Positions 22,553-35,753 of a stretch of DNA of 47,600 nucleotides are shown one piece after another. Where the stretch lies: assembly GCA_046538485.1 (NCBI GenBank), contig JBKHIT010000036.1, positions 1-47,600 of the forward strand, given 5' to 3'. The translations under genes were made by a program, and so were the position numbers. The stretch is from Candidatus Brocadiia bacterium. Its GTDB lineage: Bacteria > Planctomycetota > Brocadiia > SM23-32. The notes under the pieces were generated by a model. That model did no database searches. It was not told the origin of the DNA and saw nothing but the letters and a program-made list of their open reading frames with translations. Positions within the stretch are counted from its first letter, which is position 1. Each line of letters starts with the position of its first letter.

Positions 22553-23434
22553 CTACCATTGGCGGCGTATCCAAGACAAAACTAGTAACGCGCCAAGAAA
22601 TGCGATTGACATCATAATCGTAATGAACACGACGAAAGTTTCCGCGCCTAATACAAGACGCAAAAGCAATATAAGCCCAATTAATATCAGAAGAACCGTA
22701 GAACACGCAAATGTAGCACATACGGATGCTTCATAGCTATCCTGTTCCGCTTTTGAAGCATGGGAGGGGTGCGTTTCGTGCGATGAATTATTTGTCACCT
22801 TTTCTCTGGCGGATTTCCTCGACCGTGGGTGTTTTTTGTGCGACGTACGCATCTCGATCCTCTTCCCCGTTGTGGACCAGTCAGTCACCGTGTAGGCGAC
22901 AATCAGAATGTTCTTATACAGTTCCTTTGTATACTCCTTCCTGTTGACATCGGTTTTGCGGAGTGCATTCCTAATGCTGATGAGTTTGTCAACGGCGTTT
23001 TTTGCGGTGGTGATCGTACAGTAATGTGGTTTGGGTACCTTTGGCGGTACCGCGAACGAAACGTCGTTTTCCATTTTGTGGGGAACGACCAGATCAGCAG
23101 CTAAATGGGTGAAGACGCCGAAATAAAATGCGGCCAGTGCTTTTTCCCGTGCTTTCCAATGCGTACGCGCCTTTCTCACGAGCTCAAGCAACTTTCTCTT
23201 CAACACAGCGTCGGGTTGCTCCGGCTCGTGGTGACTCTCCCACCTACGTTCTCGTTTTTCACCGGTATATACTTCTGCAGCTTCGATCGGCAGATCGCTG
23301 AGCATTTCTTGTTTTTCTGAGTAGTCCGTAAGATCTGGATATGCCGCGCCGTTCTCAAGGGATACACGGGGGAAAGAGGGATCAAGCTGGGTGTTAATTC
23401 TTCTGACAAGCTCCTGGTGGGTCTCTCTGTTCAC
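22553..23434 (-). CDS. Zn-dependent phospholipase C/P1-nuclease-like protein with two C-terminal TM helices
   Basis: N-terminal THQ, GAAYPD, SHH, AAFYFGVFTHLAAD..PH..E pattern; hydrophobic C-terminus; GTG start with AGGAG RBS. Confidence 0.65.
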   Translation of the reverse strand: MNRETHQELVRRINTQLDPSFPRVSLENGAAYPDLTDYSEKQEMLSDLPIEAAEVYTGEKRERRWESHHEPEQPDAVLKRKLLELVRKARTHWKAREKALAAFYFGVFTHLAADLVVPHKMENDVSFAVPPKVPKPHYCTITTAKNAVDKLISIRNALRKTDVNRKEYTKELYKNILIVAYTVTDWSTTGKRIEMRTSHKKHPRSRKSAREKVTNNSSHETHPSHASKAEQDSYEASVCATFACSTVLLILIGLILLLRLVLGAETFVVFITIMMSIAFLGALLVLSWIRRQW

Positions 23435-23747
23435 TGCTTCTCCTGCTCCGCTCTTGTAATGCGCGCCAAGGCCTTCAATTGCTCAACAGGTTAGTCTTGC
23501 ACGTACAAACTGAAAAAGCGATTGCAACTTTGGCGACGTCATACTTTTTTACGACAACTCCTGTCACATGCTACTGCCAACAACCCCTACACGTAAAGAG
23601 TTCCGGTGGGCAGAGAACGTTATGGGTTTCCAGTGACAGCTGGGGACGGACATTCTCGTTGATTTAGGGACCGACTGATTGCCGGGGAGACCGAGTCATG
23701 GAAGAATGTTTACGTTTGGGCCGGTGACGTTGAACGGCCGGAGCGAT

Positions 23748-23769
23748 AAAAAAGGCGCATCCTGTCGCC
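23748..23769 (-). terminator. Putative terminator of retron operon
   Basis: Minus strand GGCG-a-CA-gga-TG-CGCC then T6, ~77 nt after RT stop; short stem. Confidence 0.45.
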
Positions 23770-23845
23770 GTAATTCGTTGTCAGCATACCATGAAACTTT
23801 GCCGGGTTTCTTTGATATCCCGTAGAAACTTAAATCAACGCGTTA

Positions 23846-24841
23846 TCAGTTAGTTGCCGCCGTCAAATCCTCGCAACTGAGAAACAGAGCATAGGCTTCT
23901 TCCATTTCCTGCTCGGTACCTCCCCAATCAATACCGTTGAGTCTGCCCCTGAGCTTTTTCCCTAAATCAGGATCGAACCGTTCGACGTGCTGGACACGGC
24001 CATTGATTTTCTGCTTTGCTTTTCCCACGGATAGTCCGTTAATAACTGCATATGCAGCAGCGCCGTTTTCCAGACAGAACCAGATGTCGTCCTTTAAATC
24101 CTGCAGGAATGATTTCGTTGGACGGAGCTTATTGTTGACGACAAGTCCAGTCACAACTTGTCTCTCCCACTCTGGAGTTGCCTTAACCTTCTCAGGTGCG
24201 ACGGTGTAGCCAGTCGATTCTATTCTGTCTACGAAGGCCTGGCACATTGAACGCAGATCGAGTTGCCCTGAGACCGCTATGTCATCGACGTATCGTCCGT
24301 AATTAAGGTTTTCTTGGCCAGAACGCTGACACAGATATAGGCATTCTTCATCTGCTGGCAAAAACGCCACATTAGCGAGCAGGGGGCTGGTTGGTGCACC
24401 TTGAGGCAAACAGCTTTCGTGGGTTGTAAGACGACCCACCAACGATGCTGCGTCCTGGGTGAATCCTCTGCGGCAAAGAGTGTTCTCGACCCGAGCTAAT
24501 GATGTAGAAGGAAAAAAGGACCTTATATCCAACGCCAAAAGCCACCTTTGCCCCACGTGAGGTTGCGCATATTCTTTGATCGAACGGCCTGGTATCCCTC
24601 CAAACATATATTTCGGTGCAGGCAAAAAAGCATCTTTGAGAATATCAAGAAGTTTGTATTGCGTTTCTTTGAGCCAGGGATAAGGGGGGTGAATAATTCT
24701 CAGCTTACCGCTATCTTTTTCAAGCTCCAATCTTCCGTAAGCGTTGGGCGCTTTGTCCGCTTGTTGTCGCAGGTGCAATAGAGATGCTTCGCATCGGCTG
24801 GCTATCTCAACCGCGTCAATTTTGCGTTTTTTGTTCCTCAT
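23846..24841 (-). CDS. Retron-type reverse transcriptase
   Basis: KDSGKLRIIHPP, LDIRSFFPS, LPQGAPTSP, catalytic YVDD, retron region Y QVVTGLVVN, region X variant YAQPH; ATG 24841 preferred (ORF extends to 24871). Confidence 0.93.
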   Translation of the reverse strand: MRNKKRKIDAVEIASRCEASLLHLRQQADKAPNAYGRLELEKDSGKLRIIHPPYPWLKETQYKLLDILKDAFLPAPKYMFGGIPGRSIKEYAQPHVGQRWLLALDIRSFFPSTSLARVENTLCRRGFTQDAASLVGRLTTHESCLPQGAPTSPLLANVAFLPADEECLYLCQRSGQENLNYGRYVDDIAVSGQLDLRSMCQAFVDRIESTGYTVAPEKVKATPEWERQVVTGLVVNNKLRPTKSFLQDLKDDIWFCLENGAAAYAVINGLSVGKAKQKINGRVQHVERFDPDLGKKLRGRLNGIDWGGTEQEMEEAYALFLSCEDLTAATN

Positions 24842-25130
24842 CTTGGCGTCCGTTTTCCCAAACTTTCTCAACGATCAGCTCTGCTGCCTGTATCAGAAGT
24901 TTTTGATCGTTAGGTAACTCTTCTGGCATATCCAGGGACTTCCAGAGAATTACCTCTGGCTCCGTTTCCAGTGCTTCGGATACGGAACGCAACCTGTTCA
25001 TACTAATATCTCTATCACCCGATTCAATCAGACTAATTGTCGCCTGACTGACACCAGCCGCGTCCGCAAGTTCCACTTGCGTTAGCCCGCGTTTTTTCCG
25101 CAATCTTCTTATCGTATCGCCTATATCCAT
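24816..25130 (-). CDS. XRE/Cro-C1 HTH protein, retron-associated
   Basis: IGDTIRRLRKKRGLTQVELADAAGVSQATISLIESG; overlaps RT start. Confidence 0.92.
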   Translation of the reverse strand: MDIGDTIRRLRKKRGLTQVELADAAGVSQATISLIESGDRDISMNRLRSVSEALETEPEVILWKSLDMPEELPNDQKLLIQAAELIVEKVWENGRQDEEQKTQN

Positions 25131-25185
25131 CTTCGCGTTGTTTTATGGGTTAGTTGCTGTTATTTGTTTTCGCCCAACTCGCCAA

Positions 25186-25422
25186 CTATGTCGCCGTTTT
25201 GATTAGTTCTAATGCGAACATGGCTGTCTTTAGGATGACGCTAACAGCTGCACCATCCAAGCGCAATTTGGAATGATCCCGCAATTCTCGGCGGAGATCT
25301 TTCTCCAAATTACGGAGACAGGCCCTCTGCTGGAGATTAAGATCGCTACTCTTGGCTGCGATGGTGATCGCAGCAAGAACAAGATTAGCGTCTTCATCCG
25401 TTAATACTATTTTGCCACTCAT
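25186..25422 (-). CDS. Small helical protein (78 aa), candidate type VI retron effector (SP)
   Basis: Strong SD GAAAGGAGGT 6 nt before ATG; sits between ncRNA and HTH; hydrophobic N- and C-terminal helices. Confidence 0.8.
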   Translation of the reverse strand: MSGKIVLTDEDANLVLAAITIAAKSSDLNLQQRACLRNLEKDLRRELRDHSKLRLDGAAVSVILKTAMFALELIKTAT

Positions 25423-25733
25423 ATGTAAACCTCCTTTCTATCTTGAAATCCCAACTGAGTTAAACATCCCAGTTTCGCTTGAGCGAATTGCTGGGGAAAG
25501 TCTTACCCATCTGCGAAACGATTTTGGCAAATACGACATCGCTCGCAGTGACCGTAAGGGGCACTTTGCTTCAATGGCGAGGCGTAACCAAGTTCCTCGG
25601 GACACAAGGCTACATCGTCAATTGTGCACCCCTGGCCGCAGTGGAGAAGGAAGCCCCGCTCCACGTCGCGAAAGGAGGTATCTGTTTGAGCGGCGGACGA
25701 ATGTCAAAGATCCGAACCACTTGGTTCGTATTA
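25414..25733 (-). ncRNA. Retron msr-msd ncRNA (overlapping SP translation start)
   Basis: Terminal IR 25670-25694/25414-25438; G directly 3' of the 5' arm (25669); internal hairpins 25641-25664, 25578-25599, 25502-25558, 25468-25495; promoter upstream; ends approximate. Confidence 0.8.
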
Positions 25734-25739
25734 CTCTCA

Positions 25740-25768
25740 ATAATAATATATGGGTGACTCTTTGTCAA
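25740..25768 (-). promoter_or_regulatory. Sigma70 promoter of retron operon
   Basis: TTGACA (25768-25763)-17 bp-TATTAT (25745-25740). Confidence 0.75.
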
Positions 25769-25902
25769 GAGAAAAGTAATATTTATTTATACGCCCATAT
25801 GTCCCGGAAGGGTGTCACATACAGTAGGGTTTAAGGGTAGCAGATTATTACTGACCGGACCAAGATGACAACGAAAAGCTGAGAATCCTTCTGAGAAAAA
25901 GC

Positions 25903-25930
25903 TTGACATAGTAGTTTTTAATGGTAAAAT
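25903..25930 (+). promoter_or_regulatory. Sigma70 promoter of R-M operon
   Basis: TTGACA-16 bp-TAAAAT with TGn extended -10. Confidence 0.7.
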
Positions 25931-25936
25931 ATTCGC

Positions 25937-25954
25937 ATGGGTCAAATGACCCAT
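25937..25954. promoter_or_regulatory. Palindromic operator at R-M transcription start
   Basis: Perfect ATGGGTCA-aa-TGACCCAT 6 bp after the -10 box. Confidence 0.6.
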
Positions 25955-25985
25955 CGCCTTTTCGGTTATTTTGTGAGGATGGAAA

Positions 25986-27809
25986 ATGAGTCTGATCGAT
26001 GATGATGCCTGCCGGGATATCCTGATGGCGCTGATGAAGTATCCGCCCTCCCGTGAGTTCAGCCGGCGGAAAGTGGCCGAAATTGCCGATGTGCCGCAAT
26101 CCACCGCGAACCGTAAACTCGAAACGCTCGCCAAACAGGGCGTTATCGATGTGCGGCCGATCGAAGGGGGGAACACCCACCTGGTGTCCATCAACGAAGA
26201 CAGCCCCCACTACGGCGAGCTGAAATCCGCCTTCGAAAAACAACGCGATAAAGAACTGGAAGACGAAAAACAGAAAGGCACCGACTCCGGGCAGACCATC
26301 ACCCTCCACGTGCTCGAATCCTACCTGTGGCAGGCCGCCGACATTCTGCGTGGCAGCATCGACTCATCCGACTATAAAAGCTACATTTTCGGGCTGCTTT
26401 TCCTCAAACGCCTGAGCGATCGGTACGAGGAGGAGGCCGAAGAGTTGATCGAGGAGGGCATTCCGGAGAAGATTGCCTTCGATGATGAGGACCTGCACAC
26501 GTTCTATCTCCCGCCGCGTGCGCGATGGGAACACGTCCAGAAACAGAACCGCGATATCGGCGCCACCATCAATAAGGCCTTCGAGGAGGTGGAGAACCGT
26601 AACGATACCATCGAGAACGGCGTCCTGACCAGCATCGATTTCAACGATAAGGAACGTCTTCCCGATCCGGTGCTGGAGGAGCTGATCGTTCATTTCAGCC
26701 AGAAAAGTTTCCGGAACGAGAATCTGGCCGATCCCGATATCTTTGGCCGGGCCTACGAATATCTCATCCGTCAGTTCGCCGACGACGCCGGGAAGAAGGG
26801 CGGGGAGTTCTACACGCCTCGGGGCGTGGTGCAGGCTCTGGTGAAGATCCTCGACCCGCAGCCGGGCATGCGCGTCTATGATCCGTGCTGCGGCTCGGGC
26901 GGGATGCTCATCTACTCGGCATCCCACATTCGCGAGGACAACGGCGGAAGCATGGAGGACATCTCACTCTACGGTCAGGAGCGGAACCTCAACACCTGGG
27001 CCATCGCCGAGATGAACATACTGCTTCACAACCTCCCGGATGCCCGTATCGCCAAGGGCGACACCATGCGGGAGCCGAAGTTCCTGGACAACGCCGGTGG
27101 CCTGATGGTCTTCGACCGGGTCATTGCCAATCCGATGTGGAATCAGAAGCGGTGGAGCAAGGAGTTTATCAAGGAGAACCAGCCGTTCAACCGTTTCCCC
27201 TACGGTCTGCCCCCCAAAAACTCCGCCGACTGGGCCTGGGTGCAGCACATGCTGGCCAGTCTCAACCAGACCGGCAAGATGGGCGTGGTGCTGGACAACG
27301 GCGTGCTGTTCCGGAGCCGTTCGGAGGGCAAGATACGTCGCAAGGCGCTGGAGGACGATCTGGTGGAGGCAGTGATCGCCCTGCCGGGCAACCTCTTCTA
27401 CAACACCTCCTCCCCGGGCTGCATCATGATCCTGAACAAGGACAAGCCGGAGGAGCGACGGGGCAGAGTCCTGTTCATCTACGCCGAGGATCAGGAGGCA
27501 CGCGAATCCGGCACGCTGCTCTACGAGGAGCTGTCGAACCAGAACCGTCTGCTGGACAGCGGCATCGAGAAAATCGTCGAGACCTATCAGGAACTGGCGG
27601 AGGAAGACCACTTCAGTCGGCTGGTCGGGCTGGAGGAGATCGAGGAGAACGACTGGAATCTGAATGTCCCGCGTTACGTCGATACAACCGAGCCGGAGGA
27701 GCCCATCGATGTAAGCGAGAAGCGCCAGGAACTGCAGGAACTGGAAGGGAAGCGAGATCAGATCAATACTGAGCTGAATACATTTCTTGAGGAGCTTGGG
27801 TACGAATGA
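25986..27809 (+). CDS. hsdM: Type I R-M methyltransferase HsdM with N-terminal winged HTH extension
   Basis: LWQAADILRG, GEFYTP, YDPCCGSGGML, motif IV NPMW, WNLNVPRY; first ~95 aa wHTH-like (FSRRKVAEIADVPQSTANRKLETLAKQGVI). Confidence 0.95.
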   Translation: MSLIDDDACRDILMALMKYPPSREFSRRKVAEIADVPQSTANRKLETLAKQGVIDVRPIEGGNTHLVSINEDSPHYGELKSAFEKQRDKELEDEKQKGTDSGQTITLHVLESYLWQAADILRGSIDSSDYKSYIFGLLFLKRLSDRYEEEAEELIEEGIPEKIAFDDEDLHTFYLPPRARWEHVQKQNRDIGATINKAFEEVENRNDTIENGVLTSIDFNDKERLPDPVLEELIVHFSQKSFRNENLADPDIFGRAYEYLIRQFADDAGKKGGEFYTPRGVVQALVKILDPQPGMRVYDPCCGSGGMLIYSASHIREDNGGSMEDISLYGQERNLNTWAIAEMNILLHNLPDARIAKGDTMREPKFLDNAGGLMVFDRVIANPMWNQKRWSKEFIKENQPFNRFPYGLPPKNSADWAWVQHMLASLNQTGKMGVVLDNGVLFRSRSEGKIRRKALEDDLVEAVIALPGNLFYNTSSPGCIMILNKDKPEERRGRVLFIYAEDQEARESGTLLYEELSNQNRLLDSGIEKIVETYQELAEEDHFSRLVGLEEIEENDWNLNVPRYVDTTEPEEPIDVSEKRQELQELEGKRDQINTELNTFLEELGYE

Positions 27810-29134
27810 GTGATGATGGTTACAAAGAAGTGCACGTAGGACCGCAGAGACTGCAAATTCCCATCGAATGGGAAGTAAAGCTTATCAAAGATTGTTGCCG
27901 TTACGTTTCTGGGTCAGGATTTCCAGAAGAATATCAAGGCAAAAAAAGGGGGGATTATCCATTTTATAAAGTGAGTGATATGAACAATTACACCAAGTTC
28001 ATGGGTGATTCTAACAATTACGTTGGAGAGGTGGAGGTTGAAAAATTAAATCTCAAAACGGCACCTAAGGACGCCGTAATTTTTCCCAAACTTGGAGCGG
28101 CTTTGGAAACTAACAAGAGACGCATACTCTCAAGAGAGTCAATTTTTGATAATAATATTGCTGCCCTTATCGCGACAGACATAAATAATAGGTTCCTGTA
28201 TTATGTCCTGCAGACAATAGATTTGGGCATATTGGGGAATTCCGGAACAGTTCCGTCAATCAACAAATCCACGATTGAAAAATTGCAATTACTCTGCCCA
28301 CCATTGCCCGAACAGAAGAAAATCGCCGCCATCCTTTCCCGTGTGGACGAGGCGATCCGGACCACCGAGGAGATCATCGACAGGACGGAGGAGCTGAAAA
28401 AAGGCCTGATGCAGGACTTGCTCACCCGCGGGATCGGACATGATGAGTTCAAGGAAGTGCAGATTGGGCCGAAGAGGTTGTCGGCACCTGCGTGCTGGGA
28501 GAAAGTAAAGGCGGGAGATCTATGTAAAGTTAAAGGCGGTAAAAGACTGCCAAAAGGTGAGGGATATGCTGAAGAGAAAACGGAATTCCCGTATTTGCGT
28601 GTAGTAGATTTCAGTAATGGTTCTATCGATCCTTCCGAACTGCAGTATCTCAAACCGGACACTCAGCAGAAAATAGCTAGGTATACCATAACTTGTAAGG
28701 ACGTGTTCATATCGATTGCGGGCACGATAGGGGTAGTCGGAATTGTTCCTGATTTCCTGGATAACGCCAACCTAACGGAGAATGCCGCCAAGTTGTACGA
28801 TCTTCAAGTAGACCAGAAGTATCTGTATTATTATCTCAGCGGCAAACTGGGACAGGATGAAATAGACCGGTTCACGATCGGTAGTACCCAGCCTAAGCTG
28901 GCTCTCAAAAGAATAAAGAAGATTAATGTGCTAGTCCCGCCCAAAAAAGAACAGAAACAAATCGCATCCATCCTGTCCCGAGTGGATGAAAAGCTCCAGA
29001 CCGAACGGGAATATCGGGAGGAGCTCACCGAACTGAAGAGGGGCCTGATGCAGGACCTGCTGACCGGCAAGGTGCGCGTGACGGATTTGCCGGATGACTT
29101 ATTTGAAGGGATGGATTGTGCCGAATTGGCCTGA
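27806..29134 (+). CDS. hsdS: Type I R-M specificity subunit
   Basis: Two TRDs; PPLPEQKKIAAIL..LKKGLMQDLL repeated as PPKKEQKQIASIL..LKRGLMQDLLTG; ATGA overlap with hsdM. Confidence 0.95.
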   Translation: MSDDGYKEVHVGPQRLQIPIEWEVKLIKDCCRYVSGSGFPEEYQGKKRGDYPFYKVSDMNNYTKFMGDSNNYVGEVEVEKLNLKTAPKDAVIFPKLGAALETNKRRILSRESIFDNNIAALIATDINNRFLYYVLQTIDLGILGNSGTVPSINKSTIEKLQLLCPPLPEQKKIAAILSRVDEAIRTTEEIIDRTEELKKGLMQDLLTRGIGHDEFKEVQIGPKRLSAPACWEKVKAGDLCKVKGGKRLPKGEGYAEEKTEFPYLRVVDFSNGSIDPSELQYLKPDTQQKIARYTITCKDVFISIAGTIGVVGIVPDFLDNANLTENAAKLYDLQVDQKYLYYYLSGKLGQDEIDRFTIGSTQPKLALKRIKKINVLVPPKKEQKQIASILSRVDEKLQTEREYREELTELKRGLMQDLLTGKVRVTDLPDDLFEGMDCAELA

Positions 29135-29303: not shown

Positions 29304-32300
29304 ATGGCATTATCTGATGCAGCAAAGGAGCACGCTGAAGAGTTAGGACGGCAATTAGCCAAGGATAAACTATGCATCATTGCTGGTGCCGGTGTATCCC
29401 GGAACCCGCCCGCAGAGCTGCCCAACTGGCTTAATTTAGTCAAAAGAGTGAATGAGAATCTTGATGCGGGATTAGAAGAAGATACCCTCGCCAAACCGAT
29501 GATGGCCATGGGGATCATGGAAGTCCGCAAGGATCGTGGGAGCGTGGTCTCTGCTATGAGGGAAGTGCTCCCCGACAACACTCCGACCACTCATATTCAC
29601 CGGCGCCTTGTATCGCTTGGTTGCCCGATCTATACAACAAATGTCGACCAACTCTTTGAGAAGGCTGCGGAAGATCAGGATATCCCGATACGAGTCCTCA
29701 AATGCGACCAGGATTTTGCGCATGATGTGCAAGGACAAATCATCTGTAAGCTTCATGGGGATCTGCAGGCTCCGGATACACTTGTCCTGTCGCAAGGTGA
29801 CTACCATGAGGTCATGAAGCAAGAGAAAGCACGGGGATTATTCACTAAATTTCGTGCCCAATTGCAGGATTCGTATGTGCTTATGGTGGGGCATAGTGCC
29901 AATGATCCCGATTTGCAATGGACAGTAGATTACGTCAAGGAACTGCTTGGTAGAGAGGCGCGTCCAATCCGTGTCATCACAGCCACGCCTCGCCAGGATG
30001 ATATAACACGCCTTAAGGGTGTTCTTGGCCTGACCCCTGTGGTGCTTGATAATTACGATCAGCTGCCGGAATTACTCAGGACTTTGGAAGACTCGGCTCG
30101 GGAGCAAGGGAGCGCTTCTTCCCCACCAGAGTCTATTACCCTCCTAGAGGAGAATACCGTTGACATTGTGGAAGATATTTGGGCTGAGAAATCAGAGGAG
30201 ATAAACGAACTGCTCCGTCGTTGTGACTATGAACAGGCTTTAAGCCGTGCTGAAACCTGGGAGCAGCGAATCATGGACATTGATGGGGTCTCCTCCAATA
30301 CGGTTGCCAGAATATATCGCATTAAAGCAATTTGCCACCGCCAACAAGGCGACGAGGACGCAGCGCTTGTGGAAATTAATGCAGCCCTGGAAGAAGCCCC
30401 CGACAATCCCCAGAACCAGGTGGAACTTGCAACCATCAGGCTTATGTCAGGTGGACAGGAAGAAGCTTCCCACGCCCTAAAAAATGAGCAAGATTTGGAT
30501 ACTCGGCGATTCCAAGCCATGCTGGGGCTTATGTCGGATGATCTGGAGCCTACAGCAGAGCTGTTAGAGGACCCCGAAGCTCAAGAAGACGCGAACTGCC
30601 AAAGCCTCTTCGCGACTTATTATTACCGTACGGCCCGTTTTCCTGAAGCGGTTCAGGCGGCGCGTAAAGTGGCAGAGTTTGGAGATACAGTGCACGCCCA
30701 CGAACGTGCGGGAGATATAATTTATACCGTTGCAGTAAGGGGTGTGCAGGAAATGATAAACGAGAATCTACTCCTGAAACCTGATCAGTTTGAAGTGCCG
30801 ATGGGAGGAGTAGTGGACTGTCAACTGCTCGAAGAGGCTACTGAATTCTACAAGACAGCCCGTGATATGGCAGCGGAATCAGCGCGATGGGTTCGAACTG
30901 TCTTATCCAAAAAGATAGCTAGATCGGCTTGGATGGTTGGCGACAGGGAATCAGCCGACCAGAGTATTTCGCGGATACCTGAACTTGATGATTTGGAGGG
31001 CTTTTTCGAAAGAGGGAGTAGCCTTACAGAAACAGATGTCGAGGAACTGGTCGAGCAACTGAAAGAAGGGCCGCATCGCCGACGGGAGGATCCGGTATCA
31101 GCATTGATCAACGTAGCCGAGCAACTGCTGGAGCACAATAAGTCAACACTGGCGCTGCGGCTGCTGGATAAGGCTAAACAGATGGTTCCTGACGGAATTA
31201 TGCTCTTTTGGCGGAATCTGCGAGCTCGAGCATTGCTGCAGGATAGAGGTCTCCGGTCAGCAATGCGAGAGTTGAATCGGGCTAGATCCACACCCCAAGG
31301 CGAAGCTGCTGTCCACCAGTTCAAAGCGCAGTTGCAGGCACAAGCTGGAAAGCCAGAATCAGCAAAAAAATGGTTCGCACGTGCACTGAAGTCCGGGAGA
31401 TTCCGCGTATCAGCGCTCTACAGGTATGGGATGTTCGCATTGTCAGAACTGCAAGATTACGAAAAGGCAGCTGACCTTTTAGGGGAACTCATCCAATTGG
31501 TTCCAAGCCAGAAAATACAGGAGGTCTACTGCGAAGCCGCAATTGCTACAAACAAAGGGGACCTTATTCGACGGGCCAGAGCGGAATTGGAGGGATTGCG
31601 GGCCAAAGGGCAAGCGGACAAACAGGCTCTACGAGGGCTGATTGCATGTTACCAGAAAGAAACAGATTGGAAGAGAGCCCGAGAAATCGCCGAAGAGTAT
31701 CTGAAACGGTGGCCAGAAGATAAACCCATTCGGAACAACTACGCACTGTTCCTTGACAGATGCGGCGAAATAGATCTGGCATTAATGCAACTGGAAAAGC
31801 TTCGGACTTTATCTGATTTGGAGCCTGATGAGCGGTTCGGGATGCTTGTCAATAGAGCACAAATCCTTCTGAATGCGGAACGCTACCGAAAGGGTTACCG
31901 CACGGCTCTTGAGGCAAAGCAAGACTTCGAAAGCCGGGCCGAGGGTTGGCTGATGCTTATGCGCGCTTGCCGTATGCTGGGGAGGGATGACGAGCTGGCT
32001 TCAGTCATGGTAAATTTCCACAGTCGTTTCCCTGACCATCCAGCAGTCTGTGCTGAAACGGATGTGAAAAAGCTCGTTCATCTGCAGGAGACTCTTAGCA
32101 AACGAAGTCAAAAATGCAGGGAGAAATACGAGTCCCGGGAAATTCCTATACACCTGTTGGCAGAATGTTGGGGAATGCCATTGCCGGTTATCTGGGCCTA
32201 TTTAGCAAAGAACGAGGCCGTGCTTTGTGGCCTCCATGATGAGGAGACTATAGAGGCTCAAATGCAACGGATTGACGGGGGGACGCTGATTCTTGATTAC

Positions 32301-35300
32301 ACTGCCTTGCTTGCCATCAGAGAGTTGGATCTATGGGATCACCTATCCAAACTTCCAAATGTGATTGTGTCTCAAGCCCTCCTTGATCAGCTGCAAGAGG
32401 ATTCGCATGATCTCCAGGGGCGTCTGCGGATAGAACACCGGGAACGTTACGAGCATATGCAAGAAACACTTGAAGGGAGTGGCAGCGTCTCCATTCATGA
32501 CCAGAATCCCCGTCAGGATATACCCGATCCATGGATTGAGGAGCATGGCTGGATCACGGCGGCTGACCTATGGCACGCAGAACAGGCAGAAGGAGTGGTG
32601 CTTGATGACATATCTGATACGCTCCCGCCCAGCAGGATTCTCAGAACAGACCAGTTGCTCCAGTGTTTACACAGGGAAGGCTGGTTGTCCCGTTCTGATT
32701 TGGACGACGCAATAGAAGAAATCAATCAGTGGCCCAGCCATATACAAGGGGGTACGGAAGCTCCACTCGTTGTGAAGGACACCCAGATGACGACTCCCAT
32801 CGTGCTGTCAATAAACGCGATCGAATCACTTGAGAGGTTGGACATGCTGGAGCTGGTCGCATCCCGCTGCAGTCAAGCTATTGTTTCCTCAGCAACCTGG
32901 AGTCATTTTGCGTCTGAACTTGCGCAACTGCGCTTTTTCAAACGTACAAAAGAAAACCAAGACCATCTTCGCAATCGGGCCACAAGCATAGACGTCACGG
33001 CGGTAGAAAAGCGCGAAGTGCAGGCCGCTGGCCTGAAAGCCGATGCAGATTCGGCATACCTACAACACAACTGGTGTCTTGCGAGAAAAGATCAGAGTCT
33101 CCTTTGGACGGACGACGCAGTGCTCCGGGCATATACCGAAAAGAGGCCGGTTGTAGAAGACGGCATGGCCGTGACTACTATAGCCGTGTTGCATTGGTTA
33201 AAAGAGAATGGCCATCTGGATGAAGAGGATTTTCGAAGGCGAATTCAAACTCTGACTAGACTCCAATATCAGTACGTCGTTCCGGAGGCAGATGACTTGC
33301 TTTGGACAATGCGGGAGTACAATTGGCAAATTACTGAAGAAGCTGCGGAAACCTTACGTTACTATGGAGGACTTTTTGAACACGTCAAGCCCAATGTGAG
33401 GAATCTGAATTGTTTTTTCCAATCTATCGAGGAACTGTTGTGCGAATGTTGGCAGTTATCTGGACGTTCACAGACAGAAAAGGCGGACCTCGCAAACTGG
33501 ATATTAGAGAATATCATGCATCCACGATGGTACGAAGAGAGGCCGGAAAAGGTTAGGCGCGTCTTCCTCGACCGCATGCTTCTTGTGTTATGGAGGATGC
33601 CTGTCGCGGGAGCTCGACGTTTTGGAATATGGTTGCGGGATTACTTTATGCAAGAGGGAATGCCAGCAAAGGAATTTGCTGAAGCATTAGGGGATTTGCT
33701 GAGGGAGATATCGCAGACAGAAACAGAAAAAGAGGAAAAAGAAAAAGCAATAGTCAACATCCTCGTTCGCTTGCCTGTGTGTCTTAGACGAATGATTCCT
33801 GAAAAAATCTTTTTCAGAATATCGCATTTATTGGAACAGAGTGAAGGTACACTTCAAGTGCTTGAAGCTAAAACTGCTCAGGGCACGTTCTCTTTGGCTC
33901 AAAACGATGTGAAGATGCTCGCAGAGGATCAGGTTGAGCGTCATGGAGCTGAAGCTATAAATGAGAATCTAAGAGTTGAAATATCAGCCGACGTCACCCG
34001 GTATGCATTCTGTGAAGAAGAGGACGGTGTCTTGCGATGGCCCTCATATCCTTCCGGCCTGCGACAGGAGTTTTACGTCGATGCGACTGAACTATTGACC
34101 AGTTGGTCGCAAGGTGTTCGAAAGAGCACGGCTGCAGGTATCGCCAGTCGAATTAATGATTCTTCTGTAAGTTTTGTTGCGCTAAATAGCAGTCTGCATA
34201 ACACGAACGAGTGGAATGATGAACAAATTCGCGATCTCCGGACAATTGCTCATTCCCCAGCAGTCCGTCTTCTATTCCACGGTGGGGAGTCCAACGAACA
34301 GTGGATCAGGGAGCTTCTCGGAACATCATGGGAAACCATACAAAATGCCTATGGATACCTACCGAACGCGCCTCAAGATGTTTTCCTTAGCGGAAATGAC
34401 TGGCCTGAATGTATTCGTTCTGCATTTCCGACTCGTGGCGCTTTTGCGAACACAATACGGGAAGTGAGTCATGCTGGCGGCGACAGTTGTTTGGACGATC
34501 TACTTGGACAGCTAACCCACACGCACGATCCTTTTACATTTGCAGCGAGTCTGGAGGCGATCTTCGAACGGGTAGATGTGGGATCAGGCGTGGAACCCGA
34601 TCAGAAAGACACCATTTCCAATCAAATCCATCACGGACTGACTGTATTTGGGGATTCGGGCGACCGGCATGCCAGGCACACTGCATTCGTAGAGATACTG
34701 CGCGCTGTGGCGTGGATTTCGATCCAAAAAGGTTACATCTATCGAAGCAATAACTCGCAACGGCTCACAAACGCGGAACTACTGGTGCCGGTTATACCGT
34801 TGGCCCGGGATATTGCTGAGATCGTCGATCTTTCGTCTGCAACTCAAAAAGAATGCCAGGGCATCAAGAAGTCCTTTGTCAGGATTGTGGATATCGCGGC
34901 TCAGAACAGCATGCGTAACGGTGTTGTTGCAGTAACCAACGATGTTGCAGATTTCCGTTGTATAACTCCCAGAGAGTTGCTCCCGGCGATAACCATGAGC
35001 GTCTTGGAGCAATCCCCAAAGACCAGCAAGAAATTTGTGGATTACCATCAAATCAAAGAAGAGGTCGTTACCCTATTGTTACCCCCTGTCTCTGTGCTAT
35101 CGCTCCCGCGACGGACTCAGAATAGGCTCGACATGTATCCATCAGCATCCCTACCGGAATGCGCTCAGAGACTTCTGACCGAATTCTTGCGCAAAAGCAA
35201 GCTAAAAGAAGCAATCGGGGATTGGGAACGACCTACTTGGCGAAAAATTCCACCTACCGTTCGCGTTATGGAAGCGGACGTTCAAGACGTCACATTTGGG

Positions 35301-35753
35301 CTGCTCCAGCATAAGGTCCCTTTCATACCGGCAAGCATAGCCAATCAGCTATATACCGATGCAAAGGATCCACAAGAACTGTGGCACCGTGCTGAGAATG
35401 AGATGCCAAATGCTCTCTCATTTTTCTGGTCTTGTGTAACGCTGTTGGATGAAGACAACCGCCGTGAGCTGTGTGAAGGTACCTGTGCAGCTGCTGAAAT
35501 GTCGCTGGATGCCCAAAACTTGGAACGGGCCATTTGGGGCATAAATCTGATAATCAGACATCTTCAAGACTTGAGCGAGGCCGAGTGGAGCACTTTATCA
35601 TTGCTTCTCTTTCGTACCCTCGAAGATGAGGCTGTTGATGAAGACATCCGACGAAGCATTGCGCGATCTATGAGCAACCTACCGGAGAATATTGGACGGC
35701 TTAACCGAGAAATCGCAGCAGATTTTGCCTCGGATATTTTTCCTGGGTTATAA
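29304..35753 (+). CDS. SIR2-like NADase domain + TPR repeats + PIN-like domain(s), 2149 aa
   Basis: IIAGAGVS..LPNW, TTNVD, KLHGD, VGHSANDPD; TPR-like helices aa ~300-900; LILDYTALL and LLWTDD PIN-like motifs. Confidence 0.85.
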   Translation: MALSDAAKEHAEELGRQLAKDKLCIIAGAGVSRNPPAELPNWLNLVKRVNENLDAGLEEDTLAKPMMAMGIMEVRKDRGSVVSAMREVLPDNTPTTHIHRRLVSLGCPIYTTNVDQLFEKAAEDQDIPIRVLKCDQDFAHDVQGQIICKLHGDLQAPDTLVLSQGDYHEVMKQEKARGLFTKFRAQLQDSYVLMVGHSANDPDLQWTVDYVKELLGREARPIRVITATPRQDDITRLKGVLGLTPVVLDNYDQLPELLRTLEDSAREQGSASSPPESITLLEENTVDIVEDIWAEKSEEINELLRRCDYEQALSRAETWEQRIMDIDGVSSNTVARIYRIKAICHRQQGDEDAALVEINAALEEAPDNPQNQVELATIRLMSGGQEEASHALKNEQDLDTRRFQAMLGLMSDDLEPTAELLEDPEAQEDANCQSLFATYYYRTARFPEAVQAARKVAEFGDTVHAHERAGDIIYTVAVRGVQEMINENLLLKPDQFEVPMGGVVDCQLLEEATEFYKTARDMAAESARWVRTVLSKKIARSAWMVGDRESADQSISRIPELDDLEGFFERGSSLTETDVEELVEQLKEGPHRRREDPVSALINVAEQLLEHNKSTLALRLLDKAKQMVPDGIMLFWRNLRARALLQDRGLRSAMRELNRARSTPQGEAAVHQFKAQLQAQAGKPESAKKWFARALKSGRFRVSALYRYGMFALSELQDYEKAADLLGELIQLVPSQKIQEVYCEAAIATNKGDLIRRARAELEGLRAKGQADKQALRGLIACYQKETDWKRAREIAEEYLKRWPEDKPIRNNYALFLDRCGEIDLALMQLEKLRTLSDLEPDERFGMLVNRAQILLNAERYRKGYRTALEAKQDFESRAEGWLMLMRACRMLGRDDELASVMVNFHSRFPDHPAVCAETDVKKLVHLQETLSKRSQKCREKYESREIPIHLLAECWGMPLPVIWAYLAKNEAVLCGLHDEETIEAQMQRIDGGTLILDYTALLAIRELDLWDHLSKLPNVIVSQALLDQLQEDSHDLQGRLRIEHRERYEHMQETLEGSGSVSIHDQNPRQDIPDPWIEEHGWITAADLWHAEQAEGVVLDDISDTLPPSRILRTDQLLQCLHREGWLSRSDLDDAIEEINQWPSHIQGGTEAPLVVKDTQMTTPIVLSINAIESLERLDMLELVASRCSQAIVSSATWSHFASELAQLRFFKRTKENQDHLRNRATSIDVTAVEKREVQAAGLKADADSAYLQHNWCLARKDQSLLWTDDAVLRAYTEKRPVVEDGMAVTTIAVLHWLKENGHLDEEDFRRRIQTLTRLQYQYVVPEADDLLWTMREYNWQITEEAAETLRYYGGLFEHVKPNVRNLNCFFQSIEELLCECWQLSGRSQTEKADLANWILENIMHPRWYEERPEKVRRVFLDRMLLVLWRMPVAGARRFGIWLRDYFMQEGMPAKEFAEALGDLLREISQTETEKEEKEKAIVNILVRLPVCLRRMIPEKIFFRISHLLEQSEGTLQVLEAKTAQGTFSLAQNDVKMLAEDQVERHGAEAINENLRVEISADVTRYAFCEEEDGVLRWPSYPSGLRQEFYVDATELLTSWSQGVRKSTAAGIASRINDSSVSFVALNSSLHNTNEWNDEQIRDLRTIAHSPAVRLLFHGGESNEQWIRELLGTSWETIQNAYGYLPNAPQDVFLSGNDWPECIRSAFPTRGAFANTIREVSHAGGDSCLDDLLGQLTHTHDPFTFAASLEAIFERVDVGSGVEPDQKDTISNQIHHGLTVFGDSGDRHARHTAFVEILRAVAWISIQKGYIYRSNNSQRLTNAELLVPVIPLARDIAEIVDLSSATQKECQGIKKSFVRIVDIAAQNSMRNGVVAVTNDVADFRCITPRELLPAITMSVLEQSPKTSKKFVDYHQIKEEVVTLLLPPVSVLSLPRRTQNRLDMYPSASLPECAQRLLTEFLRKSKLKEAIGDWERPTWRKIPPTVRVMEADVQDVTFGLLQHKVPFIPASIANQLYTDAKDPQELWHRAENEMPNALSFFWSCVTLLDEDNRRELCEGTCAAAEMSLDAQNLERAIWGINLIIRHLQDLSEAEWSTLSLLLFRTLEDEAVDEDIRRSIARSMSNLPENIGRLNREIAADFASDIFPGL

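Follow-up and report, generated by a model that had tools for sequence, protein, structure and literature searches.

The mRNAs of the type I toxin-antitoxin systems hok, tisB and zorO are held translationally inert by long-range 5′-3′ or 5′ UTR pairing until they are processed. Two recent preprints describe Type VI retrons in which the translation initiation region of a small protein (SP) is likewise base-paired. According to the text of the first (Zhang ... Shipman, bioRxiv 10.1101/2025.10.22.683967; hereafter the Vpa2 preprint), retron Vpa2 makes a hybrid RNA that combines the msr-msd with the gene for a toxic SP, whose translation is repressed until msDNA accumulates, as a first-pass annotation of the DNA studied here had correctly stated. 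A separate arm of the Vpa2 RNA holds the RBS and the AUG in two local stem-loops, and the first arm is joined by a1/a2-like repeats to the 3′ end, past the SP gene. The text of the second preprint (Garcia-Rodriguez, Martinez-Abarca, Molina and Toro, bioRxiv 10.64898/2026.04.27.721009; hereafter the Sen3 preprint) describes the Sen3/cl2075 systems. In the cl2075 lineage the ncRNA lies within ~280 nt of the SP start; it carries terminal inverted repeats, and a stem-loop immediately precedes the 5′ one. The basal stem of this RNA sequesters the SP RBS. Two alternative conformations are described, as is an alternative IR1-IR2 pairing to sequence past the SP stop. In Sen3, tagged SP was detected under basal conditions despite the position of its RBS in the basal stem, the HTH protein neutralised SP post-translationally without the ncRNA or the RT, and ssDNA levels were unchanged on infection (Sen3 preprint).

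We analyzed a retron locus in a 47,600-nt stretch of DNA (the window) from an 88%-complete metagenome-assembled genome (MAG) of a Candidatus Brocadiia bacterium. On the minus strand the order is promoter, ncRNA, SP, HTH and retron RT, which is the layout of a Type VI retron:

25740..25768, minus strand: σ70-like promoter TTGACA-17-TATTAT, 11 of 12 consensus matches by consensus scan only; likely start of the hybrid RNA
25186..25422, minus strand: gene for SP, 78 aa, a presumed toxin and a divergent member of the SP family of the relatives
24816..25130, minus strand: gene for the HTH protein, 104 aa; Pfam HTH_3 at 2.9e-16, best PADLOC model HTH_VI at 1e-17
23846..24841, minus strand: gene for a retron-type reverse transcriptase, 331 aa from ATG, the ORF opening at TTG 24871; RVT_1 at 5.2e-17, catalytic motif YVDD

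The locus has the hallmarks of a retron, namely an RT of the retron clade and, upstream, an ncRNA that shows terminal inverted repeats and internal stem-loops in predicted folds and by family covariation. Two further features are those of Type VI in the Mestre 2020 scheme, which both preprints summarise: a Cro/C1-type HTH gene that overlaps the RT gene, here by 26 nt, and a small-protein gene between the ncRNA and the HTH gene. The overlap of the HTH and RT genes and the HTH_VI pattern were also found in two relatives (L001 and L094). PADLOC models of 60 families matched the RT, and the 25 of 60 listed were all retron RT models; RT_III-A scored best (1.6e-57, 193 bits), and RT_VI reached 9e-48 and 161 bits, versus 206-334 bits for bona fide enterobacterial loci. 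Rfam, searched over 23500-26500 at E up to 1, gave no family, and three matches on the opposite strand, upstream, were set aside as chance snoRNA matches.

The surroundings of the retron are likely a defence island. The regions 25986-29134 (+) and 29304-35753 (+), upstream and divergent, encode a type I restriction-modification pair, with HsdM matching N6_Mtase (1.6e-103) and HsdS matching Methylase_S (1.6e-49), followed by a protein of 2149 aa that combines an N-terminal SIR2_2 domain (1.2e-19) with TPR repeats. Facing hsdM is another near-consensus promoter (25903-25930, plus strand; TTGACA-16-TAAAAT, TG-extended), which stands back to back with the retron promoter. On the other side, 412 nt downstream of the RT gene and on the same strand, the ORF 22553-23434 (-) encodes a protein with a weak match to Zn-dependent phospholipase C (6.7e-08), a hydrophobic C-terminus and no PADLOC match.

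The SP had no Pfam or PADLOC match, and neither had the SPs of the relatives. Searches of large protein databases for SP homologues gave only the protein of the window itself, and phmmer found no match between it and the ORFs of the 160 loci fetched for comparison. The syntenic SPs of the 19 relatives retained below are 87-98 aa long and are preceded by strong SDs. Only a profile comparison linked the window SP to them: with a profile of 20 syntenic SPs (the 19 family loci plus L083), hhalign gave a probability of 81% and an E value of 1.2e-5 over residues 2-49. The window SP aligned with those of the relatives over its full length, and the last 10-24 residues of the family are missing from it. 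When SP was modelled in complex with the HTH protein, the ipSAE was 0.61 (median of three runs), as compared to 0.00 for the best of three controls; the runs agreed in at least 94% of contacts, with a partner pLDDT of at least 79. The ipSAE mark that this model passed is reached by 116 of 157 solved complexes and by 2 of 215 mismatched pairs, counts that hold only roughly here because our own alignments were used. The modelled interface is formed by residues 55-93 of the HTH protein, its C-terminal extension, together with the first and the last helix of SP, and it is likely, going by this model, that the HTH protein binds SP as a protein-level safety.

Sen3/cl2075 is the closest published architecture, as matched to the text description in the Sen3 preprint and not by sequence alignment. 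Both have the order SP-HTH-RT with the HTH gene overlapping the RT gene, and the HTH protein of the window is predicted to bind SP; in both, a structured ncRNA lies within ~280 nt of the SP start (here 273 nt). By contrast, the RT is distant from those of 13 enterobacterial RT_VI loci (206-334 bits), with phmmer E values of 1e-11 to 3e-31, and its best PADLOC model is RT_III-A. Likewise unlike Sen3/cl2075, the window SP is without detectable sequence relatives in database searches, and the hosts belong to Planctomycetota, which the text of the Sen3 preprint does not mention, and to other environmental phyla.

The initiation region of SP is paired with the distant 5′ leader through the following segments:

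25670..25679, minus strand: anti-SD arm b, ACCUCCUUUC, read from the strand and from the minimum free energy (MFE) fold
25429..25438, minus strand: Shine-Dalgarno region d of SP, GAAAGGAGGU; duplex with an anti-SD probe at -12.3 kcal/mol
25687..25694, minus strand: outer 5′ arm GCCGCUCA in the MFE, part of the second helix of the first-pass annotation
25414..25421, minus strand: outer 3′ arm UGAGUGGC, over the UG of the AUG and codons 2-3
25695..25701, minus strand: outermost 5′ arm UUCGUCC, which pairs with GGAUGAA 25399-25393 (codons 8-10) in the MFE only

Consistent with the perfect complementarity claimed in the first-pass annotation, ACCUCCUUUC (25679-25670) and GAAAGGAGGU (25438-25429) form 10 bp on the minus strand, every pair of which is Watson-Crick. 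After an internal loop of 7 nt per side (25686-25680 and 25428-25422), as the annotation had also described, GCCGCUCA (25694-25687) and UGAGUGGC (25421-25414) pair over 8 bp, and this second helix spans the U and G of the AUG (25422-25420) plus codons 2-3. It includes one G-U pair (G25691-U25417), which would be a C-A mismatch if the other strand were transcribed, so that the annotation was right to call this pair valid only on the transcribed strand. The 5′ strand of the helix lies ~250-275 nt upstream, with the 5′ arm beginning 273 nt before the SP start, and the pairing partners of the SD are located in the 5′ leader, 232-241 nt upstream.

The unconstrained MFE of 25705-25405 reproduced this bipartite helix exactly (-113.2 kcal/mol, z -4.6, equalled by 0 of 100 shuffles), as did the fold of the 616-nt transcript up to the HTH start (-218.8 kcal/mol, z -6.1, 0 of 20 shuffles). 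The MFE also had a third helix segment outside the coordinates of the first-pass annotation, between 25701-25695 and 25399-25393. The arm duplex energy of -31.9 kcal/mol was matched by none of 200 shuffles of the upstream region, and the 10-bp SD helix by itself gave p = 0.013 (300 dinucleotide shuffles). In the transcript 25733-25120, opening the stretch from the SD through AUG+3 cost 19.0 kcal/mol, as compared to 5.8 kcal/mol without the 5′ arm and 4.6 without the ncRNA; the corresponding cost for the HTH initiation region was 5.1 kcal/mol. In these folding models, the SD/AUG helix closes a structured ncRNA domain and the SP initiation region is costly to open.

The rest of the ncRNA and its surroundings contain these elements:

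25713..25728, minus strand: 5′ hairpin CGAACC-AAGU-GGUUCG in predicted folds, just upstream of the conserved leader
25704..25711, minus strand: motif a, AUCUUUGA (family consensus CUCUUUGACAAC), conserved in the ncRNA alignment
25447..25669, minus strand: structured interior, the presumed msr/msd template, with five stem-loops predicted by MFE
25479..25487, minus strand: IR1-like segment UUCGCUCAA, 9 bp (1 G-U) with 25177-25169
25440..25446, minus strand: motif c, UCAAGAU, which lies 1 nt before the SD; family consensus UCAAAGAG
25169..25177, minus strand: IR2-like segment UUGGGCGAA, 9 nt past the SP stop codon
25129..25135, minus strand: CGAAGAU at the start codon of the HTH gene; pairs with motif a when the full-length transcript is folded

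The closest RTs were 35-47% identical to that of the window and came mostly from Planctomycetota MAGs and metagenomes. In 40 related genomes no orthologue of the window RT was found; six had RT matches at E up to 1e-20, with 30-37% identity. Sequencing runs likewise yielded DNA contigs only, one run possibly being that of the source sample; the contigs from four runs were short, of low depth and identical to each other. An HTH homologue adjoined the RT in 34 of the 160 fetched loci, and 19 of these 34 plus the window made up the family of 20 loci used below. The 15 left out were duplicates (L087, L091, L101 and L084), loci whose upstream region was cut short (L082, L083, L092 and L093), loci where the SP start was not clear (L081, L085 and L105) and loci with a weak HTH match and no SP-like ORF (L025, L107, L127 and L154). 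Three further loci (L161-L163) were ruled out as Type VI on account of their long fused RTs.

All 20 loci share one order of elements: the 5′ hairpin, motif a (CUCUUUGACAAC), a variable arm, the anti-SD (consensus CCUCCUUUC), the structured interior, motif c (UCAAAGAG), the SD 0-6 nt further on, the AUG and, in codons 2-8, a segment complementary to the variable arm. An equivalent of the 5′ hairpin was present in the MFE of 19 of the 20 members and also aligned in the whole-ncRNA alignment, and in motif a TCTTT was invariant and G/C/A nearly invariant across the family. The pairing of motif a with the HTH start (25135-25129), which echoes a remark in the text of the Sen3 preprint, had no clear counterpart in the relatives and was set aside. 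A G just 3′ of the anti-SD arm was considered as a branch-point marker; by eye it lay within 4 nt in 18 of 20 loci, and we did not use it because this frequency is close to that expected from base composition. As a separate observation, the first stem-loop past the anti-SD arm in the window (25664-25641, GUGGAG...CUCCAC), whose stem is equivalent to GAAGG/CCUUC in one clade of relatives, holds in its loop a second anti-SD-like run, GGGCUUCCUU, that could pair with the SD over 10 bp including 4 G-U.

To score the helix across the family we used contiguous-helix and windowed tests in place of unrestricted RNAduplex over 260 nt, which gave mostly loop-rich artefacts in the relatives. An SD helix of at least 8 contiguous bp was found in 16 of the 20 loci, the exceptions being L003, L007, L090 and L097, and at most 10 of 200 shuffles were as good in 14 of 20. 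A helix of at least 7 bp into SP codons 2-8 was found in 15 of 20 loci, and the same shuffle criterion held in 13. Single-locus p values (dinucleotide shuffles of a 270-nt region) were at most 0.05 in 10 of 20 loci and at most 0.01 in one, and the observed helix beat an opposite-strand control in 18 of 20. The helices recurred with differing sequences between loci, as illustrated by the compensatory arm pairs CCUCCAGG/CCUGGAGG (L102), CACCUCCUCU/AGAGGGGGUG (L100) and GCCUCCCUUC/GAAGGGAGGU (L095). Since a MAFFT alignment of whole ncRNAs lost the register of the anti-SD arm, the covariation check across homologues that the first-pass annotation had proposed was run on the 20 loci as a cognate versus non-cognate permutation, and the cognate arms came out ahead: each leader paired with its own tail at -31.5 kcal/mol versus -23.6 with non-cognate tails (0 of 10,000 permutations), and with the SD excluded the values were -18.7 and -13.1 kcal/mol (0 of 10,000), the cognate combination topping its column in 12 of 20. 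In unconstrained MFEs at least 7 of 11 SD nucleotides were paired with the 5′ arm in 12 of 20 loci, and with any partner in 15; in the full-length transcript MFEs, computed for eight loci, the SD was paired elsewhere in three (L008, L094 and L100). The pairing is real, prevails in the predicted ensemble and has been preserved in relatives through compensatory changes; the family counts together with the cognate versus non-cognate permutations indicate a conserved structure and not a chance one.

At the level of the ncRNA, comparison with the text of the Sen3 preprint extends the likeness to the cl2075 ncRNA, with the RBS in the basal stem and a stem-loop upstream of the 5′ repeat, and to the long-range pairing with sequence past the SP stop in Sen3/cl2075; the helix probably corresponds to stem SL1 of the Sen3/cl2075 ncRNA as published. 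Unlike in the structure described there, an additional pairing between motifs a and c crosses the basal stem in the window. The locus resembles Vpa2, as described in the text of that preprint, in having the retron template and the SP coding sequence on one transcript, a base-paired RBS and start codon, HTH and RT partners, and a small (here presumed) toxin with a hydrophobic C-terminal helix, whereas its SD pairs with the far 5′ leader and not within local stem-loops of a separate arm. Both modes occur among Enterobacterales, where strong RT_VI matches were present in 13 of 401 genomes: L171, which has a strong PADLOC RT_VI score, showed a nested two-part closing stem directly past the 5′ hairpin, as in the window, and the RT_VI-scoring loci L164, L169 and L170 showed local SD hairpins as in Vpa2. 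As for hok, tisB and zorO, the toxin RBS is predicted to be closed by distant pairing and to require remodelling for translation; unlike in type I systems, an antisense RNA antitoxin is absent, the strand that closes the RBS is part of a reverse-transcription template, and the system includes an RT and an HTH protein.

We put the probability at about 0.6 that the helix, as the basal stem of the retron ncRNA, holds the SP initiation region shut on the hybrid RNA, which would have to be remodelled before toxin can be made. On this account the helix would be the basal closing stem of a Type VI-like retron ncRNA, the far 5′ strand of which pairs with the SD, the start codon and the first codons of SP; because the 5′ arm occupies all three, SP initiation would be closed and translation of the presumed toxic effector held low on the full-length hybrid RNA. 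One candidate route for remodelling is an RT- or msDNA-dependent event as in Vpa2, and another is a switch to the competing conserved pairings (a:c and IR1:IR2) described below. That release would come specifically from reverse transcription or RNase H is a tentative proposal, made by analogy with Vpa2. As in Sen3, binding of the HTH protein to SP may be a further restraint, at the level of protein. The first-pass annotation had taken the helix for the a1/a2 priming stem of the retron doubling as a translational lock. The retron locus with SP, HTH and RT genes, the costly SP initiation (19.0 versus 5.8 kcal/mol) and the covariation speak in part for this idea; the identification of the helix as a1/a2 is uncertain, the a:c and IR1:IR2 pairings both crossing it.

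A less probable account, although one that deserves serious weight, is that the helix is a scaffold first and a lock second, as in Sen3. It would mainly close the ncRNA for RT binding and priming, the overlap with the SD would only dampen translation, and SP would be made constitutively at a low level and held by the HTH protein, so that phage sensing would act on proteins and not on translation. The detection of Sen3 SP under basal conditions, although its RBS lies in the basal stem, means that occlusion need not mean silence, and the HTH-dependent neutralisation and unchanged ssDNA described in the text of the Sen3 preprint point the same way, as does the HTH-SP complex model obtained here (0.61 versus 0.00 for the best control). 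This account fits less well with the large opening cost in the window (19 kcal/mol) and with the extension of the helix well into the coding region with locus-specific covariation, which is more than a priming stem seems to need.

Two other pairings recur in the family and bear on the reading of the helix as basal stem and lock. Motif a (CUCUUUGA) and motif c (UCAAAGAG) could pair over at least 7 bp in 14 of the 20 loci, with a compensatory change of GCUC/GAGC versus GUUC/GAAC. This pairing crosses the SD helix, since the anti-SD is preceded by a and the SD by c; from the order of the elements in the sequence, a:c and the SD helix together would form either a pseudoknot or alternative states. 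The second pairing also crosses the SD helix and joins IR1, 64-106 nt before the SP start, to IR2, which begins 2-10 nt past the SP stop; it reached at least 8 bp in 16 of 20 loci, with cognate pairs at -22.1 and non-cognate pairs at -19.0 kcal/mol (0 of 10,000 permutations). In the window IR1:IR2 is weak alone (20 of 200 shuffles as good), yet it lies at the homologous position of the family. When IR1:IR2 was enforced in eight full-length transcripts, at a cost of 0-25 kcal/mol, 2-9 of 11 SD nucleotides stayed paired, none of them with the 5′ arm. Given two crossing conserved pairings, the SD helix may be one of several states, or may not be the priming stem.

Two side observations concern these elements. 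Within the first 10-30 nt past the SP stop, a C-rich and then U-rich tract (CCCUCCCUUUU-like) is present in ten loci (L005, L008, L009, L010, L088, L094, L095, L098, L099 and L100) and absent from the window; this tract forms the IR2 arm, resembles an anti-SD itself and could double as a terminator tail, and the SP SD is its partner in the MFEs of the full-length L094 and L100 transcripts. In L001 (L001:1834-1845 and L001:2252-2263) a second copy of the a-like motif (GCUCUUUGA) occurs in the leader and pairs with a c-like motif in SP codons 3-6, which makes that a/c pairing nested in the closing stem and not crossing.

These pairings give rise to another account, which we regard as rather unlikely: a:c (CUCUUUGA/UCAAAGAG) would be the true priming stem, the SD helix a separate crossing lock and IR1:IR2 a third state, with SD opening set by a change of partner or by a pseudoknot. 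Equally doubtful is the fuller form of this idea, in which the hybrid RNA would be a multi-state translational switch with three SD-like and three anti-SD-like elements and three mutually crossing pairings (a:c, anti-SD:SD with the coding-region helix, and IR1:IR2), the choice among which would depend on reverse transcription of the template and on the termination of ribosomes at IR2 and would decide toxin translation. The recurrence of both pairings, the compensatory change in a:c, the loss of all contacts between the SD and the 5′ arm when IR1:IR2 is enforced, and the two alternative conformations described in the text of the Sen3 preprint are consistent with such a switch. Against it, a:c was present in none of the 20 MFEs and is weak in the window (7 bp plus one bulge, 26 kcal/mol to enforce), where enforcing IR1:IR2 also costs 25 kcal/mol and the SD helix dominates the fold over both. 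Moreover, motif a is without its G in L003, and the nested closing stem of L171, L001 and L002 simply takes in the a-like motif. Motifs a and c are conserved in sequence and could therefore be protein sites instead. Finally, it is highly improbable that a purine-rich SD and a pyrimidine-rich tract are complementary here by chance and without function: anti-SD-like tracts are common and the single-locus shuffle p is only ~0.01-0.1, but in most of the 20 loci the arms recur at one position of the leader, their flanks and the coding-region helix covary, and the opposite-strand control was beaten in 18 of 20.

The locus is a new, divergent representative of an already described Type VI-like design, and it opens no new kind of mechanism because the core idea is contained in the 2025-2026 preprints on Type VI retrons. 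What it adds is reach: the design of a toxin gene embedded in the retron RNA extends to a deep, uncharacterised lineage, found mostly in Planctomycetota MAGs, with RTs at most 47% identical to that of the window and an SP family without annotation, and the burial of the toxin initiation region in the closing stem of the ncRNA is maintained by covariation across this lineage. The crossing conserved pairings deserve to be followed up, and the natural compensatory variants, together with the two competing pairings, could help to explain why SP is controlled at the level of translation in Vpa2 and at the level of protein in Sen3.
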